IMG/VR virus record: IMGVR_UViG_2698536508_000019
DNA: 4,331 nt
Direction: 5' to 3' (one strand)
Source of the DNA: a virus
Taxonomy: Duplodnaviria; Heunggongvirae; Uroviricota; Caudoviricetes
Part shown: one piece after another, positions 1 through 4,331 of the stretch
Position numbering within the stretch: position 1 is the first letter of the stretch
Layout: each line of letters starts with the position of its first letter
Notes under the pieces: generated by a model
Database searches by the model: none
Seen by the model: only the letters and a program-made list of their open reading frames with translations
What the model was told of the DNA's origin: nothing
Translations under genes and position numbers: made by a program

Positions 1-119
1 CAATACGGTTCTGACGAGTCGCTTACTTTTAACGTACCTTTTTTTATTCCTTTCAGCGCAATTAACTGCTCTTCGGATACCCATTTGCCGGGAGAGACAA
101 TCATGATTACTTCGCTCAT
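1..119 (-). CDS. 5' portion of a small ORF running off the window start (MSEVIMIVSPGKWVSEEQLIALKGIKKGTLKVSDSSEPY...); possibly excisionase-like (Xis/DUF1233-type) protein
   Basis: Hand translation of the minus strand from ATG at 119-117 (a second in-frame ATG lies at 104-102); the frame stays open to position 1. It lies 72 bp downstream of the exonuclease stop, in the same orientation, where lambdoid phages carry xis. The SD is weak (AAGAGA about 14 nt upstream). The excisionase-like call rests on recalled resemblance of the W-x-S-x-x-L-x-A-x-x-G-x-K-x-G-T-L pattern to putative excisionases; not verified. Confidence 0.4.
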   Translation of the reverse strand, partial: MSEVIMIVSPGKWVSEEQLIALKGIKKGTLKVSDSSEPY

Positions 120-148
120 CGATTTCTTTATCTCTTACATCAGACGAG

Positions 149-180
149 CGCCGGTTGCAGAATACCAGTCACAACCGGCG
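149..180 (-). other. GC-rich hairpin (9-bp stem cgccggttg / caaccggcg, 14-nt loop) in the 72-bp spacer between the exonuclease stop and the xis-like start
   Basis: Perfect inverted repeat 149-157 / 172-180 read directly from the sequence. No U-tract follows on either strand, so it is not a canonical intrinsic terminator; could be an mRNA processing or stability element. Confidence 0.4.
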
Positions 181-191
181 ACAGTTGAACA

Positions 192-2663
192 TTAAGAATC
201 AGCCTGACTCGGGATCAGTTTTTGCCAGATAACTGAAACGTATTTTGCCTGGTAACGGGCGTCATCAAGTGCATTATGGCGCTCACCTTCGAATGGAATA
301 GCCGTTCTGGCATCGAAGTCTATGGCTTTCCCCAGCTCAACGATTGTGCGTACATCGCGATCGTTGTAGTAACGCCACGGGCAGGGGATCCCCTGCCGTT
401 CGTATGAACGGCGCAAAATCGTGTTGTCGAAGTTGGCTCCATTTCCCCAGACCTGAACAAAAAATTCACCGGAGTTTTCGTCGATAAATTCCCGCAATTG
501 TAACAGTGCATCATCTAACGGGATTTCATCGGTCATAATGGCAGATTGCGCTTCGCGTGATTGCTTAAGCCACCATTTAATGGTGTCCCGATCAATGACT
601 CCGCCAGCAGTTTCCAGATCGATAGTCTTACTAAATTCCGGTCCCATATCTCCGGTTTGCGGATCGAAAAATATTGCACCTATTGAGATGATCGGGGCAT
701 CAGGATTTTTTCCCATGGTTTCAAGGTCGATCATTAGATGGTCACACGTCCTGCTGGTGGATGTGATTTCGTGATGACCGTTCACCTTAATTGGGTGATC
801 TGCCGTCTCGCCAGTTTCATTATCGCTATTGTGATGCTGATTGCCGCCAGTGTTCTCCTTGTGTGGATGTTCAGCGCCTTCCATTTCCTCCGGATCATCT
901 TCCTGAACTTCAACCTGATACTCTTCATCGAATGTTTCTTGGTATGTTGCGTCGCCCATCACCGCGCCACAATCAGGGCAGTTGCCGCCGCCGGTCTGAC
1001 CGCAGGCGGTGCAGGCTTTTTCCACTTCCTGTTGCGCCACTGGTTCAGGCTGTTTCGTTTCTGGCTCGTTTTGTAACGCATTTGGACTGTTTTGTTCCGC
1101 TTTTTGGTAGTTCCGTTCCGATTCATGCTGGTTCTGGTTCACAGAATCGCGGGTCTGGATCCCCTTAACCCATTTCGGATCATTCGGGTCACTAATCCCT
1201 TCAACAAATTCACCACGTGATGCAGCAAGCAACTTATCGGCGTCAGGCTGGCTGATATTGGCTGCCTGCATAATTTTGTTTACTTCGTCAGCGGTAACTT
1301 TTATCGGCTCTGGTTGTTCTGAATCTTCAGCGGTATCTACATTTTGCGGTAAGCCCGTGTATGTGCCATTTTTTCGGGCAAAATATTCTTCTTTTGTGAT
1401 TTCAGTGGCGCCAGCAGCCAGTGCCTTATCCAGACCAGAAAGTTTGTTTGCGCGACCGTATTTTTCTCCGTCCTTATCTGCGAAGAGGAAATAGAACGGC
1501 CCCTCACGCTCTACAGATGGTTCAGCTTCCGGCGCGGTTTCATTTTTTGGGATATCAGATACCTCAGTTTCCACTGCATCAGTTTGTGTTTCTGATGACT
1601 GGAGAACATCAACAGTGCCCAGGTCTGTTTCTTCATTCTCAAACACGCCCTTTGTCGTCAGGTATTCGCAGATATATTTGTTCAGTGCTACGGGATCTTT
1701 GTGAATGTCGATCGGACGCTCACGGACAAGGCCAAAAATAGTTTGGCGGTCGTAGCGAAGGGCATCAGGCTGTTTGCGCATTGATGCCGAGATACGCTTC
1801 CAGTCTTCGCGGTCGTTGTCGATAACTTCTTTTTTTGCCCAGCGATGGATGCTGCCGTCAATGTTTCCGGCATCCACATCACCAGGCCAGAGAGCGTAGG
1901 CCAGTTCGTCATCCAGTGTTTTCCATGTCTGCTTGTATTCGCGATGAATGGCAGCAATGACCGGGCTGATTTTTCCTGTTGAATTTTCAGTGTACTGTTG
2001 ATTGGCTCTGGCGCGGGCGAGATCAACAACAGACGTGTATTTTCCGGTTTCCTTGCGTTCACCTTCGCGACGTTTTTTCCAGATGCGCATCTCTGCCTGA
2101 ATTTCGGGCCATTTAGCACCAGGAATACATTTATGCTTAACCCACCCAATGGCGTGCAACTTAAGCTCCGGATACATGGCGTTAACTTCTGGCATTTTCA
2201 TCAACGCTTCAACGATATGTCCGTCGAATGTTGCCATGTCTTCCTGCAACAATTCCTGTGCGCTAATAACCATATCAACGGTGATGTTTTCACATGTGTC
2301 GAACTTAACCATGACAGCGTTCTGTACTTCAGGGGCCAGCTTGTCAAAAGTGACGTTCATCGGATCGGATTCAGTCTCAACCGGGACAAAAGAAGCAGAC
2401 TCCTCATCCCAGCGGTTTTCCTGCATATATTCAGCATCCCATGAATCGAGGGCAGGGCGGGGTATGCCAGGTTTATCCTCGCAGACAATAAATTTATAAG
2501 CGCAGTCCTGAGCAGCCGGATAATGTTCCAGGAACTGCCAGTGAAATTTTGCTCGAGCACGGCGTTCGTCGCCAGCTTCAATGGCTGTGGCTACAGCCAC
2601 AGAGCCTTCTTCCCTTGTTGCCAGTTCGTCAGGAATAGCGGCGCAAATAAAGACTTTACTCAT
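192..2663 (-). CDS. Exonuclease VIII-like mosaic protein: RecE-like middle segment, CxxC-x7-CxxC zinc-ribbon motif, C-terminal DEDDh (DnaQ-like) 3'-5' exonuclease domain
   Basis: Single 823-codon ORF (ATG 2663-2661, TAA 194-192). GAGG Shine-Dalgarno motif (plus-strand cctc at 2674-2677) sits 10 nt upstream of the ATG. Segment DKLLAASRGEFVEGISDPNDPKWVKGIQTRD (aa 476-506, nt 1146-1238) matches, from memory, a segment of E. coli Rac RecE. CTAC...CPDC at aa 551-565 (nt 969-1013). C-terminal domain (aa about 640-815, nt about 219-746) carries the three DEDDh motifs: LMIDLETMG (D646 at 726-728, E648 at 720-722), GANFDNTIL (D746), HNALDDA (H796 at 276-278, D801 at 261-263). Confidence 0.92.
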   Translation of the reverse strand: MSKVFICAAIPDELATREEGSVAVATAIEAGDERRARAKFHWQFLEHYPAAQDCAYKFIVCEDKPGIPRPALDSWDAEYMQENRWDEESASFVPVETESDPMNVTFDKLAPEVQNAVMVKFDTCENITVDMVISAQELLQEDMATFDGHIVEALMKMPEVNAMYPELKLHAIGWVKHKCIPGAKWPEIQAEMRIWKKRREGERKETGKYTSVVDLARARANQQYTENSTGKISPVIAAIHREYKQTWKTLDDELAYALWPGDVDAGNIDGSIHRWAKKEVIDNDREDWKRISASMRKQPDALRYDRQTIFGLVRERPIDIHKDPVALNKYICEYLTTKGVFENEETDLGTVDVLQSSETQTDAVETEVSDIPKNETAPEAEPSVEREGPFYFLFADKDGEKYGRANKLSGLDKALAAGATEITKEEYFARKNGTYTGLPQNVDTAEDSEQPEPIKVTADEVNKIMQAANISQPDADKLLAASRGEFVEGISDPNDPKWVKGIQTRDSVNQNQHESERNYQKAEQNSPNALQNEPETKQPEPVAQQEVEKACTACGQTGGGNCPDCGAVMGDATYQETFDEEYQVEVQEDDPEEMEGAEHPHKENTGGNQHHNSDNETGETADHPIKVNGHHEITSTSRTCDHLMIDLETMGKNPDAPIISIGAIFFDPQTGDMGPEFSKTIDLETAGGVIDRDTIKWWLKQSREAQSAIMTDEIPLDDALLQLREFIDENSGEFFVQVWGNGANFDNTILRRSYERQGIPCPWRYYNDRDVRTIVELGKAIDFDARTAIPFEGERHNALDDARYQAKYVSVIWQKLIPSQADS

Positions 2664-2756
2664 TTTGTTTTAACCTCATGACAGATTTAAGGATGAACAA
2701 ATCCCTGCCATTGCTGGCATATAAGAATGAAACCGGATATTTATTACGGAACTGTT

Positions 2757-2948
2757 TTAAAGACCTGCCGGGATTTCGATATTATCCTGGTGAATAACTT
2801 TATCGACCGGGTAACAGTTACCGGGAATTTTCTGTTCGGTTGCTGCAGTCATACACTCCTGCATTGTCCTGTGAACACTGACTGCAATATCAACTGGCAC
2901 TCCGGAAACAAGAAAAACTGTCAGAACAAGCGCAAATGCTGAATTCAT
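2757..2948 (-). CDS. Small hypothetical protein (63 aa) with a hydrophobic N-terminal segment; possible single-pass membrane or exported protein
   Basis: ATG at 2948-2946 overlaps the TGA (2947-2945) of the upstream gene as an ATGA coupling motif. An AAGGA SD-like sequence sits 9 nt upstream, inside the upstream gene's 3' end. Product MNSAFALVLTVFLVSGVPVDIAVSVHRTMQECMTAATEQKIPGNCYPVDKVIHQDNIEIPAGL has about 25 hydrophobic N-terminal residues and two Cys. The six-frame track extends this ORF to ATG 3002, but that would overlap the upstream gene by 58 nt in another frame. Confidence 0.55.
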   Translation of the reverse strand: MNSAFALVLTVFLVSGVPVDIAVSVHRTMQECMTAATEQKIPGNCYPVDKVIHQDNIEIPAGL

Positions 2949-3133
2949 TGTGCACATCCTTTTGGCATCAGACGTAAACGAGCCAGCATTGAAACAATGC
3001 ATATTTTATTTAATAGCTCCCGTTCTTGTTTTCTCTTGTTAATGGCATCTTCAGTAAATACAGGGTTACTGATAGTGACACCAATTTCAAAACAACCTTC
3101 AGACGTATTAACGTTTGGTAATAACGTTTTCAT
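2945..3133 (-). CDS. Small hypothetical protein (62 aa); Kil-like (KilR-type host-killing protein) by position only
   Basis: ATG at 3133-3131 is preceded by a strong SD (GAGGA, plus-strand tcctc at 3141-3145, 7-nt spacer). Product MKTLLPNVNTSEGCFEIGVTISNPVFTEDAINKRKQERELLNKICIVSMLARLRLMPKGCAQ; TGA at 2947-2945. Position and ATGA coupling to the next small gene mirror the kilR-ydaE arrangement upstream of recE in Rac. No sequence-level identification was possible. Confidence 0.6.
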   Translation of the reverse strand: MKTLLPNVNTSEGCFEIGVTISNPVFTEDAINKRKQERELLNKICIVSMLARLRLMPKGCAQ

Positions 3134-3150
3134 TATCGCGTCCTCAACAA

Positions 3151-3298
3151 TGAATTTTGTGATGCAGTGCCTGGTGCCTCCAGGTGACGTTAACCAGTTA
3201 ACAATTAACGTCGGATACAGAGAATCCACCCATAACACTGTTTTTGGTTTTAACTGTTCCGCGTGCGCTTAGCCGTATTCACCGCATCACAAAATTCA
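3151..3298. repeat. Pair of 19-bp inverted repeats (18/19 match; 15-bp perfect core tgaattttgtgatgc / gcatcacaaaattca) bracketing a 110-bp segment
   Basis: Left arm 3151-3169 (tgaattttgtgatgcagtg) and right arm 3280-3298 (caccgcatcacaaaattca) are reverse complements with one a/g mismatch. The left arm ends 18 nt upstream of the Kil-like ATG and abuts its SD. Confidence 0.8.
3186..3212. promoter_or_regulatory. Operator-like palindromic cluster gacGTTAACcaGTTAACaaTTAACgtc (8-bp inverted outer arms, three TTAAC repeats)
   Basis: Read directly: gacgttaa (3186-3193) is the reverse complement of ttaacgtc (3205-3212); GTTAAC palindromes at 3189-3194 and 3197-3202. It lies 55-80 bp upstream of the leftward Kil-like gene, inside the segment bracketed by the 19-bp inverted repeats. 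A CCTGG-n5-CCAGG mini-hairpin (3170-3184) is adjacent. Confidence 0.4.
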
Positions 3299-3385
3299 CT
3301 TTAAAAAGGGCGGCAGAGCAGTCACGGAGTAAAACTGATACCGCCAAACGTCACCAGAAAATTGATAACAGAGGGCGTTGCAGCG

Positions 3386-3556
3386 GGGTTGTCACTTAAG
3401 CGTATGGTCAACCTGACAACCCGGTGTCCTCAACGGGGAAGGAATAACCCCGCCATACTTACCGCCGCGCCATTTTGCGGGTTGCCACAACCGGAAGCGC
3501 ACGGTCGAATTAAATTTAACGACACCGTACAGTGAGACGAACTTCGCCGTGCGCTT
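3386..3556. other. Cluster of nested inverted repeats in an ORF-poor, relatively GC-rich stretch; possible structured RNA or attenuator-like element or multi-site regulatory DNA
   Basis: Inverted repeats read from the sequence: gggttgtca/tgacaaccc (3386-3394 / 3414-3422); cgggg/ccccg (3434-3438 / 3448-3452); aagcgcacgg/ccgtgcgctt (3495-3504 / 3547-3556, 10 bp perfect). An inner hairpin around the 10-bp palindrome TTAAATTTAA (3510-3519) has a stem (3501-3507) that overlaps the left arm of the 10-bp repeat, so the two pairings are mutually exclusive. No ORF with an RBS or protein-like composition was found here. Confidence 0.35.
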
Positions 3557-3598
3557 TCGTGTTGTGTGCCTGCTTTTAACCACGTCAGGCGAGGTGGT

Positions 3599-3627
3599 AT
3601 CCTTAAAATCACCACAGTTTTAAGGAT
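3599..3627. promoter_or_regulatory. 10-bp perfect inverted repeat atccttaaaa-n9-ttttaaggat whose right arm contains the Shine-Dalgarno sequence of the downstream membrane-protein gene
   Basis: 3599-3608 and 3618-3627 are exact reverse complements; AAGGA (3622-3626) lies 11 nt upstream of ATG 3638. Could be an operator or an SD-sequestering RNA hairpin. Confidence 0.45.
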
Positions 3628-3637
3628 TCATTAAGCA

Positions 3638-3958
3638 ATGTCGCAACCACCAATAAATCCGCTTAAGAACATGAAAATTGATTACTGGTATAAAGCGCTT
3701 ACAGTTGTTGGCGCTGCGTTGTTTGTCTTTAATGGAACGTCTTTTTTTGACAGATATCCCGTTGTTCCATTGGGTTTTTTGTCCTCCGGCATCTTTTTTA
3801 TTGGTTTGGGGGAGTGGATTAATCACCCTCTCATAGTGAGATTTATTGGTCCTGGAGTTTGGACTCGTGGATATAATCGTTCTTCGTGCGCACTCGGTAT
3901 CATCTTCGACATACTTGGTTGTTTCCTGATTGTTACAGGAGTCGTCAAGTTCTTCTGA
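3638..3958 (+). CDS. Small integral membrane protein (106 aa, about 3 predicted TM helices); candidate SieB-like superinfection-exclusion protein by position
   Basis: ATG 3638 with AAGGA SD; TGA at 3956-3958. Product has three hydrophobic helices (TVVGAALFVF, LGFLSSGIFFIGLG, ALGIIFDILGCFLIVTGVV) with charged residues between them. The overlapping minus-strand ORFs are K/N/R/T-rich, as expected for the antisense of a membrane-protein gene. It is divergent from the Kil-like operon across a roughly 500-bp gap, as sieB is in Rac. Confidence 0.6.
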   Translation: MSQPPINPLKNMKIDYWYKALTVVGAALFVFNGTSFFDRYPVVPLGFLSSGIFFIGLGEWINHPLIVRFIGPGVWTRGYNRSSCALGIIFDILGCFLIVTGVVKFF

Positions 3959-4058
3959 TGTAAAACCGCAAATGGGGCACGTAACGGGAATTTTGAAAAG
4001 CGTTTCTCCGGGTTCCAGAACAAAATTTTCTGCGGTCTGATTTTGCTTCTCATATTTG

Positions 4059-4331
4059 TGAGGTAGCCTGAGTTTAACGGACACTCCTTCCTGAAATAGA
4101 ATGGCATCAGAAGGAGCTAATAATGAGCAGAAAAACCCAACGTTACTCTAAAGAGTTCAAAGCCGAAGCTGTCAGAACGGTTCTTGAAAATCAACTTTCG
4201 ATCAGTGAAGGCGCTTCCCGATTATCTCTTCCTGAAGGCACTTTAGGACAATGGGTTACCGCCGCCAGAAAAGGGCTCGGTACTCCTGGTTCCCGCACGG
4301 TGGCTGAACTGGAATCTGAAATTCTGCAACT
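4059..4331 (+). mobile_element. Left end of an IS3-family insertion sequence (possibly IS600-like), extending beyond the window
   Basis: A TGAGG... terminus typical of IS3-family ends (5'-TG) begins at about 4059, 64 bp upstream of an orfA-type gene with a strong SD (AAGGAG 4111-4116). The OrfA N-terminus is an IS3-family HTH protein. The exact boundary is uncertain by a few bp, and the IS600 assignment is from memory. Confidence 0.75.
4123..4331 (+). CDS. IS3-family transposase OrfA (HTH DNA-binding subunit), N-terminal part, continues past window end
   Basis: ATG 4123 preceded by AAGGAG with a 6-nt spacer. Translation MSRKTQRYSKEFKAEAVRTVLENQLSISEGASRLSLPEGTLGQWVTAARKGLGTPGSRTVAELESEILQL has the characteristic (Y/F)SxEFKxxAV opening and HTH of IS3-family OrfA proteins; the open frame runs to the window end. 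Confidence 0.85.
   Translation, partial: MSRKTQRYSKEFKAEAVRTVLENQLSISEGASRLSLPEGTLGQWVTAARKGLGTPGSRTVAELESEILQ

Follow-up and report, generated by a model that had tools for sequence, protein, structure and literature searches.

A conserved membrane-protein gene antisense to the dicBF operon of a lambdoid prophage, and the open reading frame opposite it

The stretch of DNA analyzed here (4,331 nucleotides of the Caudoviricetes record IMGVR_UViG_2698536508_000019, hereafter the window) is the early-left region of a lambdoid prophage, with its operon read on the minus strand. On the plus strand, an open reading frame (ORF) at 3638-3958, with its ATG at 3638 and its TGA at 3956-3958, encodes a 106-amino-acid (aa) protein predicted to span the inner membrane with three helices; it lies in a module (3578-4057) that stands in for the ydfC segment of the E. 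coli K-12 prophage Qin. The coordinates and product length proposed in an earlier sequence-only reading hold. That reading also suggested that the ORF might be the truncated remnant of a longer protein, a view declared beforehand to fall if intact homologs ended at the same stop, and they do. The best explanation of the data is that the gene is intact and of native length, that the open frame downstream of it is the mirror image of a frame on the other strand, and that its role would belong to the lysogeny side of the phage; taken jointly, these statements are given a probability of about 0.85.

The 106-aa gene and the frame beyond its stop codon

A word-indexed search retrieved 60 relatives of the 106-aa protein. 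The full-length ones measured 100-111 aa, at 88, 84, 58, 51 and down to 34% identity, and came from E. coli, Escherichia sp., Yersinia enterocolitica, Herminiimonas, Reinekea and many metagenomes; their C-termini fell within about three residues of one position in the alignment, bearing out the earlier suggestion that the 106-aa form might be native. Residues Y16, W17, Y18, K19, A20, G56, G58, E59, W60, N62, H63 and P64 were invariant, marking the two invariant motifs DYWYKA (residues 15-20) and GLGEWINHPL (residues 56-65; family pattern G-x-GEW-x-NHP). A profile search covering 1.84 billion representatives, clustered at 50% identity, yielded 487 clusters at E ≤ 1e-3 and 214 at 1e-10 (3.1e-36 for the E. 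coli cluster), and nearly all of the 487 were single-domain, with the match extending to the last residues. Longer members are few and come from a distant subfamily, their Thr/Pro-rich tails or extra domains being unrelated to the peptide that could be read past the TGA of the window. In this subfamily (P0154, P0159, P0170, P0179, P0192, P0209) GEWKNHK replaces GEWINHP, and its Thr/Pro-rich tails, sometimes accompanied by a domain of 150-230 aa, fit a C-terminus outside the cytoplasm.

Identity by codon position in the plus frame followed the order second > first > third in every pair compared. The AlphaFold2 model, based on 29 sequences, reached a mean predicted local distance difference test (pLDDT) score of 85.7, with helices at residues 17-32, 42-62 and 85-105 and a beta-hairpin at 65-79, supporting the initial description of a three-helix membrane protein; judged by its charge distribution, the protein may be oriented N-in, C-out, which would put the conserved EWINHP loop in the cytoplasm. 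Both motifs, a length within ~100-111 aa, the shared C-terminus and the three helices place the protein of the window in this unnamed family. At codon 66 (3833-3835), directly after the invariant NHPL, the window and the allele of E. coli O26 encode Ile; Lys was found in 89 of 105 related loci, and the family consensus at this residue is Gln/Arg/Lys.

Past the TGA, the plus frame of the window continues for 35 more codons (CKTANGARNGNFEKRFSGFQNKIFCGLILLLIFVR) up to a TAG at 4064-4066, inside the end of the insertion sequence (IS) IS600. Both features were present as first described, and the chance probability of such a run, previously estimated at about 0.2, was recomputed as (61/64)^35 = 0.19. 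In the uninterrupted locus of E. coli O26:H11 11368, which is 100% identical to window positions 1-4060, the plus frame stays open for 96 codons past the TGA, far beyond chance. This long run is accounted for by the minus strand, whose coding frame it mirrors, and not by read-through. The minus strand of the intact locus carries an open frame of 205 codons (191 from the ydfB ATG), with triplets exactly opposite those of the plus-strand gene: it comprises the first 34 residues of YdfB, then ...MCSHNDAEHKYEKQNQTAENFVLEPGETLFKIPVTCPICGFT, and then runs antisense through the whole plus-strand gene, ending 5 codons beyond the ATG of the latter. In some records it appears as the hypothetical protein WP_000344958.1. 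The window retains the 3' part of this dicBF-operon ORF (3620-4057, minus strand; its TAA stop is the complement of 3620-3622), including a non-overlapping coding part (3959-4057, minus strand; ...HKYEKQNQTAENFVLEPGETLFKIPVTCPICGFT) assigned to a type-1 "CPxCG" peptide by motif position and wobble changes. The hydrophobic look of the peptide read past the TGA arises because it is encoded by the complement of Lys/Glu/Gln/Asn codons. Judged by the intact locus, the 35 open codons are the plus-strand mirror of a minus-strand coding stretch and not a lost C-terminus.

Of the variants within the overlap among 105 E. coli-type loci, 17 are synonymous and 12 non-synonymous when scored in the plus frame; scored in the minus frame, they give 5 synonymous and 24 non-synonymous, 2 of these nonsense. 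Together, the ORF, homolog length, codon positions, polymorphism and structure model point to a complete gene, and to the plus strand as the primary coding strand of the overlap.

The minus-strand ORF

Immediately beyond the stop of the plus-strand gene, on its 3' side, a peptide with the pattern (S-D-G-x-Y)...P-G...[FIY]-x-x-P-x-x-C-P-x-C-G is encoded in the minus frame; its CPxCG motif is found at exactly the same position in E. coli, Yersinia, other enteric prophages, uncultured gammaproteobacteria and Roseateles (at least 10 lineages). The CPxCG stretch shows third-position changes in the minus frame (e.g., CCC/CCT/CCA, TGC/TGT, GGT/GGG), and identities at its successive codon positions were 0.66/0.76/0.35 among environmental lineages and 0.64/0.66/0.42 among enteric ones. 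In a close trio, synonymous to non-synonymous changes in this stretch stood at 7:9, 11:9 and 7:10, against a neutral expectation of ~1:3 under assumed proportions of ~25% synonymous and ~75% non-synonymous sites; purifying selection on the CPxCG part is therefore indicated, with a crude ratio of ~0.3-0.5 that sets the trio counts over the assumed 25%/75% split and is not a formal ratio of non-synonymous to synonymous substitution rates (dN/dS). A second, unrelated N-terminal type (...FPGSV-x-ID.....V-x-L-x-GW) takes the place of the first in Pantoea and in several phages from metagenomes, and its position identities (0.51/0.59/0.31) also carry a coding signature. The minus-strand ORFs have Met starts with Shine-Dalgarno (SD)-like sequences upstream, often together with in-frame stops. 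Searches of the minus-strand ORFs and N-terminal peptides against Pfam gave only sub-threshold zinc-ribbon-like matches (Zn_ribbon_Com, 0.024). By its open frame, start, SD and coding signature outside the overlap, the minus-strand ORF has a head that is best read as genuine coding sequence.

The tail of the ORF presents a different picture. Chance shadow ORFs arise most readily in the codon-opposite frame. Over the length of the plus-strand gene, 10 of the 11 type-1 lineages have no stop in the minus frame; the exception, L168, has three, all within its final 17 codons. TTA, CTA and TCA are absent from the 8-12 Leu and 3-6 Ser codons of the enteric genes, and a stop-free minus frame had a null probability of 0.009-0.035 for each enteric gene and of 0.05-0.12 for those of mid-GC content. 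All 11 family members at 39-45% GC that lack the motif have 3-12 stops in this frame, distant family members have 3-17, and Rac sieB, used as a control, has 7. Inside the overlap only stop depletion was seen: no purifying selection on the minus frame could be detected in the close trio (synonymous to non-synonymous, 9:30, 10:31 and 7:28; ~1:3-4). It is most likely, from these counts, that the tail is kept open rather than constant.

As an additional layer to the intact plus-strand gene, the two frames could form a true antisense overlapping gene pair, with the minus-strand ORF translated and kept open by selection, a reading to which roughly even odds are assigned. In its favor are the features of the head (the fixed position of the CPxCG motif, the wobble changes, the identity profiles of both N-terminal types, the crude ratio in the trio, and the Met starts with SD-like sequences and preceding stops), the stop-free frames of the type-1 lineages with their low null probabilities and missing TTA, CTA and TCA codons, the stops in motif-less members at 39-45% GC and in Rac sieB, and the in-frame fusion of the ORF to ydfB here and to ydfC in another lineage. 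Against it stand the lack of minus-frame amino-acid constraint in the overlap (the trio, and 5:24 in E. coli), the two nonsense alleles in E. coli, and the AlphaFold2 prediction for the minus-strand product, which had a pLDDT of 32 throughout and no confident fold (from a shallow alignment). Moreover, ~40% of mid-GC members without a recognized N-terminal motif are also stop-free, shared ancestry of the lineages keeps the probabilities from being independent, and a long untranslated stretch is tolerated in the same operon of K-12 (PMC5069750). If the frame is kept open, a possible reason is that ribosomes follow the early transcript through the antisense insert and so avoid Rho polarity on dicF/dicB or on cII/replication genes; it is also possible that the CPxCG peptide, with its disordered tail, has a role of its own.

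A wider version of the gene-pair reading is put forward tentatively, as somewhat improbable. A lysogeny-side membrane gene and an early-operon ORF would share their DNA codon for codon, as a conserved, deep overlapping pair under selection against operon-strand stops, in enteric, gamma- and betaproteobacterial elements and with at least two unrelated N-terminal peptides on the same antisense tail. In regulatory terms, coupled translation would carry the lytic transcript through an antisense moron, and this passage would also silence the moron. The locus resembles the antisense overlapping genes of E. coli O157:H7 and Pseudomonas aeruginosa (pop/ompA, ano, laoB, asa; PMC7103648, PMC5960689, PMC5810103, PMC8850804) in that a long ORF lies antisense to a recognized gene and annotation pipelines retain one of the two. 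It differs from them in being supported by comparative and not experimental evidence, in a conserved N-terminal part that lies outside the overlap and bears a clear coding signature, in recurring across bacterial classes with two alternative N-termini, and in an overlap where stops are depleted without amino-acid constraint and the frame is codon-opposite.

In the other E. coli lineage mentioned above (P0067/P0068/P0070; L181), the module, encoding a ~58% identical protein, lies upstream of an intact ydfC, and the opposite-strand ORF enters ydfC in frame, resulting in calls of 245-271 aa; in the lineage of the window, the start of ydfB is joined in frame to the module's minus-strand ORF instead. 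A relationship between YdfC and the minus-strand ORF was rejected, since the two have no similarity; YdfC is merely fused downstream in that other lineage.

Affiliation, distribution and possible role

The protein had been described as SieB-like, a proposal that did not survive the profile search: no match to Pfam SieB (PF14163) was obtained at E ≤ 1, whereas Rac SieB, as a positive control, scored 1.5e-31 against the same profile, and BLASTP between the 106-aa protein and Rac SieB gave E = 12. Kinship with SieB is thereby ruled out. The observation that the gene sits where Rac keeps sieB proved correct, in both place and orientation, and the gene orders run in parallel: racR-ydaG-ydaF(DUF1391)-[sieB, opposite strand]-kilS-kilR-ydaE-racC-recE in Rac, and dicA-like-ydfA(DUF1391)-ydfB'-[106-aa gene, opposite strand]-dicF-dicB-ydfD-exonuclease in the intact locus. 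The prophage segment itself is not Rac, its Pfam and Rfam content being of dic/Qin type. As with SieB of Rac, P22 and lambda, the gene encodes a small inner-membrane protein, is reversed inside an early-left operon and is flanked by a DUF1391 gene (ydaF/ydfA) and by a small RNA (sRNA) plus FtsZ-inhibitor pair (kilS-kilR / dicF-dicB); it is presumably also expressed in the lysogen. The differences are the absence of any sequence relationship, the length (162 aa for Rac SieB, 106 aa here) and the codon-opposite antisense frame, which is interrupted by the seven stops in Rac sieB and by none here.

The family is unnamed and uncharacterized, is thinly spread over Proteobacteria and other phyla, and has a distribution typical of mobile accessory genes. 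No conserved neighbor gene was found across 28 loci, the sole recurring "neighbor" being the antisense ORF itself. In temperate phages the gene always lies antisense to the early lytic operon: within the dicBF-type left operon (the locus of the window), at the head of the left operon beside an S24 or helix-turn-helix, cI/DicA-like repressor (Yersinia and metagenomic lambdoid prophages), between cro and the cII/replication genes and co-directional with cI (metagenomic temperate phages L155, L158 and L165), or downstream of cI. In Pantoea (L027), the adjoining ORF is homologous to those repressor-position ORFs, as established by ORF clustering and not by Pfam; in Roseateles, the gene lies between an 870-aa ORF and a possible regulator, neither confirmed by Pfam. 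Other contexts are small-gene arrays with ParD/ParE-type neighbors and sites near transposases. In L155, L158 and L165 the module therefore lies where, in lambda, the PRE transcript runs antisense to cro. An Arcobacter sp. metagenome-assembled genome (L036-L038) has three copies on one chromosome with identical matches to the query, which suggests carriage on a repeated mobile element.

From the position of the gene, phage exclusion or abortive infection would be the most likely job of the protein, an assignment made cautiously and at somewhat less than an even chance. Lysogens, with their early operon under repression, would produce the protein, whose site of action against incoming phages would be the inner membrane; after induction, the gene would be turned off as the early operon is transcribed and translated convergently across it. 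The exclusion morons lambda rexAB and P22 sieA are likewise accessory genes in or beside the immunity region, dispensable for lytic growth, and such prophage morons are typically membrane proteins (PMC10883804). They differ from the present family, which has no known homology to them and no known phenotype and also occurs outside prophages. Alternatively, the protein may have no anti-phage function and be a toxin checked by the convergent transcript (type-I-like), or a small accessory membrane subunit with a housekeeping or stress role. The complete overlap of the gene by a convergent transcript and the several non-phage contexts (beside ParD/ParE-type genes, in cassette-like arrays) speak for this. 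It is nevertheless considered unlikely: at 106 aa and three helices the protein exceeds typical type I toxins, it has no conserved partner gene, its fold matches are generic, and recurrence in the immunity regions of unrelated temperate phages fits lysogenic-conversion genes better.

Several observations weigh against the joint reading of an intact gene with a lysogeny-side role. The SD of the plus-strand gene (AAGGA, 3622-3626) has a long spacing of 11 nucleotides (nt), a generic sigma-70 promoter/terminator scan found no strong promoter for the gene, and a candidate extended -10 (TGgTATCCT, 3595-3603) was recognized by conservation only. The 106-aa protein matched no named family in PHROGs, PADLOC, NCBIfam or Pfam; scanning 29 family members against these four libraries likewise yielded only noise, with best E values of 0.0017 (PHROGs) and 0.0031 (PADLOC) and no match common to more than 4 members, and fold searches with the 106-aa protein returned generic helical-bundle matches only. 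In addition, many members of the family lie outside recognizable prophages, in cassette-like arrays and chromosomal islands, so that the anti-phage role is a guess from position.

Two further alternatives concern the existence or the length of the gene. It is very improbable that the plus-strand ORF is a mere shadow and the 191/205-aa minus-strand ORF the sole real gene. The latter is longer and on the operon strand, its cluster (P0061) numbers 1798 members and that of the plus-strand protein 141, and it is annotated by the Prokaryotic Genome Annotation Pipeline (PGAP) in some genomes and in the record of phage HannyBb. Within the overlap, however, the third position of the minus frame is better conserved than its first, the plus-strand protein is kept in taxa whose minus frame is full of stops, minus-frame polymorphism is neutral-like or worse, and the plus-strand product folds confidently in AlphaFold2 but the minus-strand product does not. 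Least probable of all is that the gene once encoded a longer membrane protein and is now a stump, cut short first by a nonsense change at 3956 and later by the IS, as the 35 open codons with a hydrophobic stretch and the C-terminal extensions of a few distant members might suggest: close and distant relatives all end alike, including those at 88, 84, 58 and 51% identity, the rare extensions (Thr/Pro tails, extra domains) of the distant subfamily are unlike the read-through peptide, the hydrophobicity of the latter is expected from the complement of a minus frame reading KYEKQNQTAEN, and the same TGA is present in the uninterrupted locus.

The prophage locus and its interruption by IS600

The window contains, all on the minus strand, a RecE-like exonuclease gene (192-2663), ydfD/DUF1482 (2757-2948; Pfam, 4.4e-25), dicB (2945-3133; Pfam DicB, 9.6e-40, and RefSeq annotation) and a full-length gene for the DicF sRNA (3308-3359; Rfam RF00039, 76.7 bits, E = 2.4e-16). 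With DicF RNA, DicB and YdfD found in order on a single strand by Rfam and Pfam, the locus is, by its gene content, the dicBF operon of a Qin/Rac-like prophage. An STnc100-like Rfam match in the dicF-dicB spacer (3101-3310, minus strand; 34.6 bits, under the gathering score of 47) was rejected as sub-threshold and taken as that spacer. Beyond the end of the window, the uninterrupted O26:H11 11368 locus continues with the ydfB fragment, ydfA (DUF1391) and a DicA-like repressor gene. In blastn, K-12 Qin was 98% identical to window positions 1897-3577 and diverged after that point; a different module of ~0.5 kb therefore occupies the place of the K-12 ydfB 3' end and ydfC, and no YdfC match was found within it, between ydfB and dicF. 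Compared with the Qin dicBF operon (ydfA-ydfB-ydfC-dicF-dicB-ydfD; PMC5069750), the window has dicF, dicB and ydfD at 98% to K-12, and intact relatives of the locus also have ydfA and a DicA-like repressor; the differences are the module with its antisense membrane-protein gene, the fusion of ydfB to the module's minus-strand ORF and, in the window, the splitting of the operon by IS600.

The module is carried by 806 of 5426 complete E. coli genomes (~15%), mostly at ≥99% identity. In RefSeq/PGAP annotation the 106-aa gene is uncalled in almost all of the 806 carriers and the module is usually left without annotation; where annotated, it is called a "ydfB pseudogene" or a 191-aa opposite-strand ORF. 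A scan of IMG/VR added only near-identical E. coli copies and no diversity.

Upstream of the plus-strand gene, a non-coding block (3565-3627; a conserved length of 45-60 nt) was more strongly conserved than the coding sequence in an alignment of four enteric lineages. It contains the TGgTATCCT element and two hairpins, the first formed by GCCTG (3568-3572) and CAGGC (3586-3590), and the second by ATCCTTAAAA (3599-3608) and TTTTAAGGAT (3618-3627), which spans the SD of the plus-strand gene and the stop of the minus-strand ORF. The hairpin arms vary yet stay paired across the four lineages, and one C·A mismatch on the plus strand would be a G·U pair on the minus strand. The block may be a promoter/operator of the plus-strand gene or an RNA element of the operon transcript; since the boundary of K-12 homology (3577/3578) falls inside it, it is possibly a point of module exchange too.

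The remainder of the window (4058-4331, plus strand) is the left end of IS600 (IS3 family), 100% identical over 274 nt to annotated copies, with orfA starting at 4123. Identity to IS600 from 4058 and to the O26 locus up to 4060 places the junction at 4058-4060. The sequence-only reading suggested that the insertion had hit the membrane-protein gene; from the position of the junction, the cut fell instead in the minus-strand ORF, between ...NDAE and HKYEK..., and so in the dicBF operon, and the plus-strand gene escaped it. IS600 separates dicF-dicB-ydfD from ydfA, the start of ydfB and the DicA-controlled promoter, which would lie past the IS. The exact junction was found in none of the complete E. 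coli genomes searched, an absence that may point to a source rich in IS600, as in Shigella.

Standard annotation has thus missed a conserved membrane-protein gene that ~15% of complete E. coli genomes carry; where anything is annotated, the strand is the opposite one. In the genome of the window, IS600 splits the operon and therefore disconnects the toxic dicF-dicB from their promoter. The locus offers an unusually clean comparative case for asking whether long bacterial antisense ORFs are kept by selection, and why, because its second frame has a clearly coding non-overlapping head and an overlapping tail with stop avoidance only. Since the gene occupies the place of sieB in Rac, it is also a ready candidate for a new prophage exclusion or abortive-infection function.

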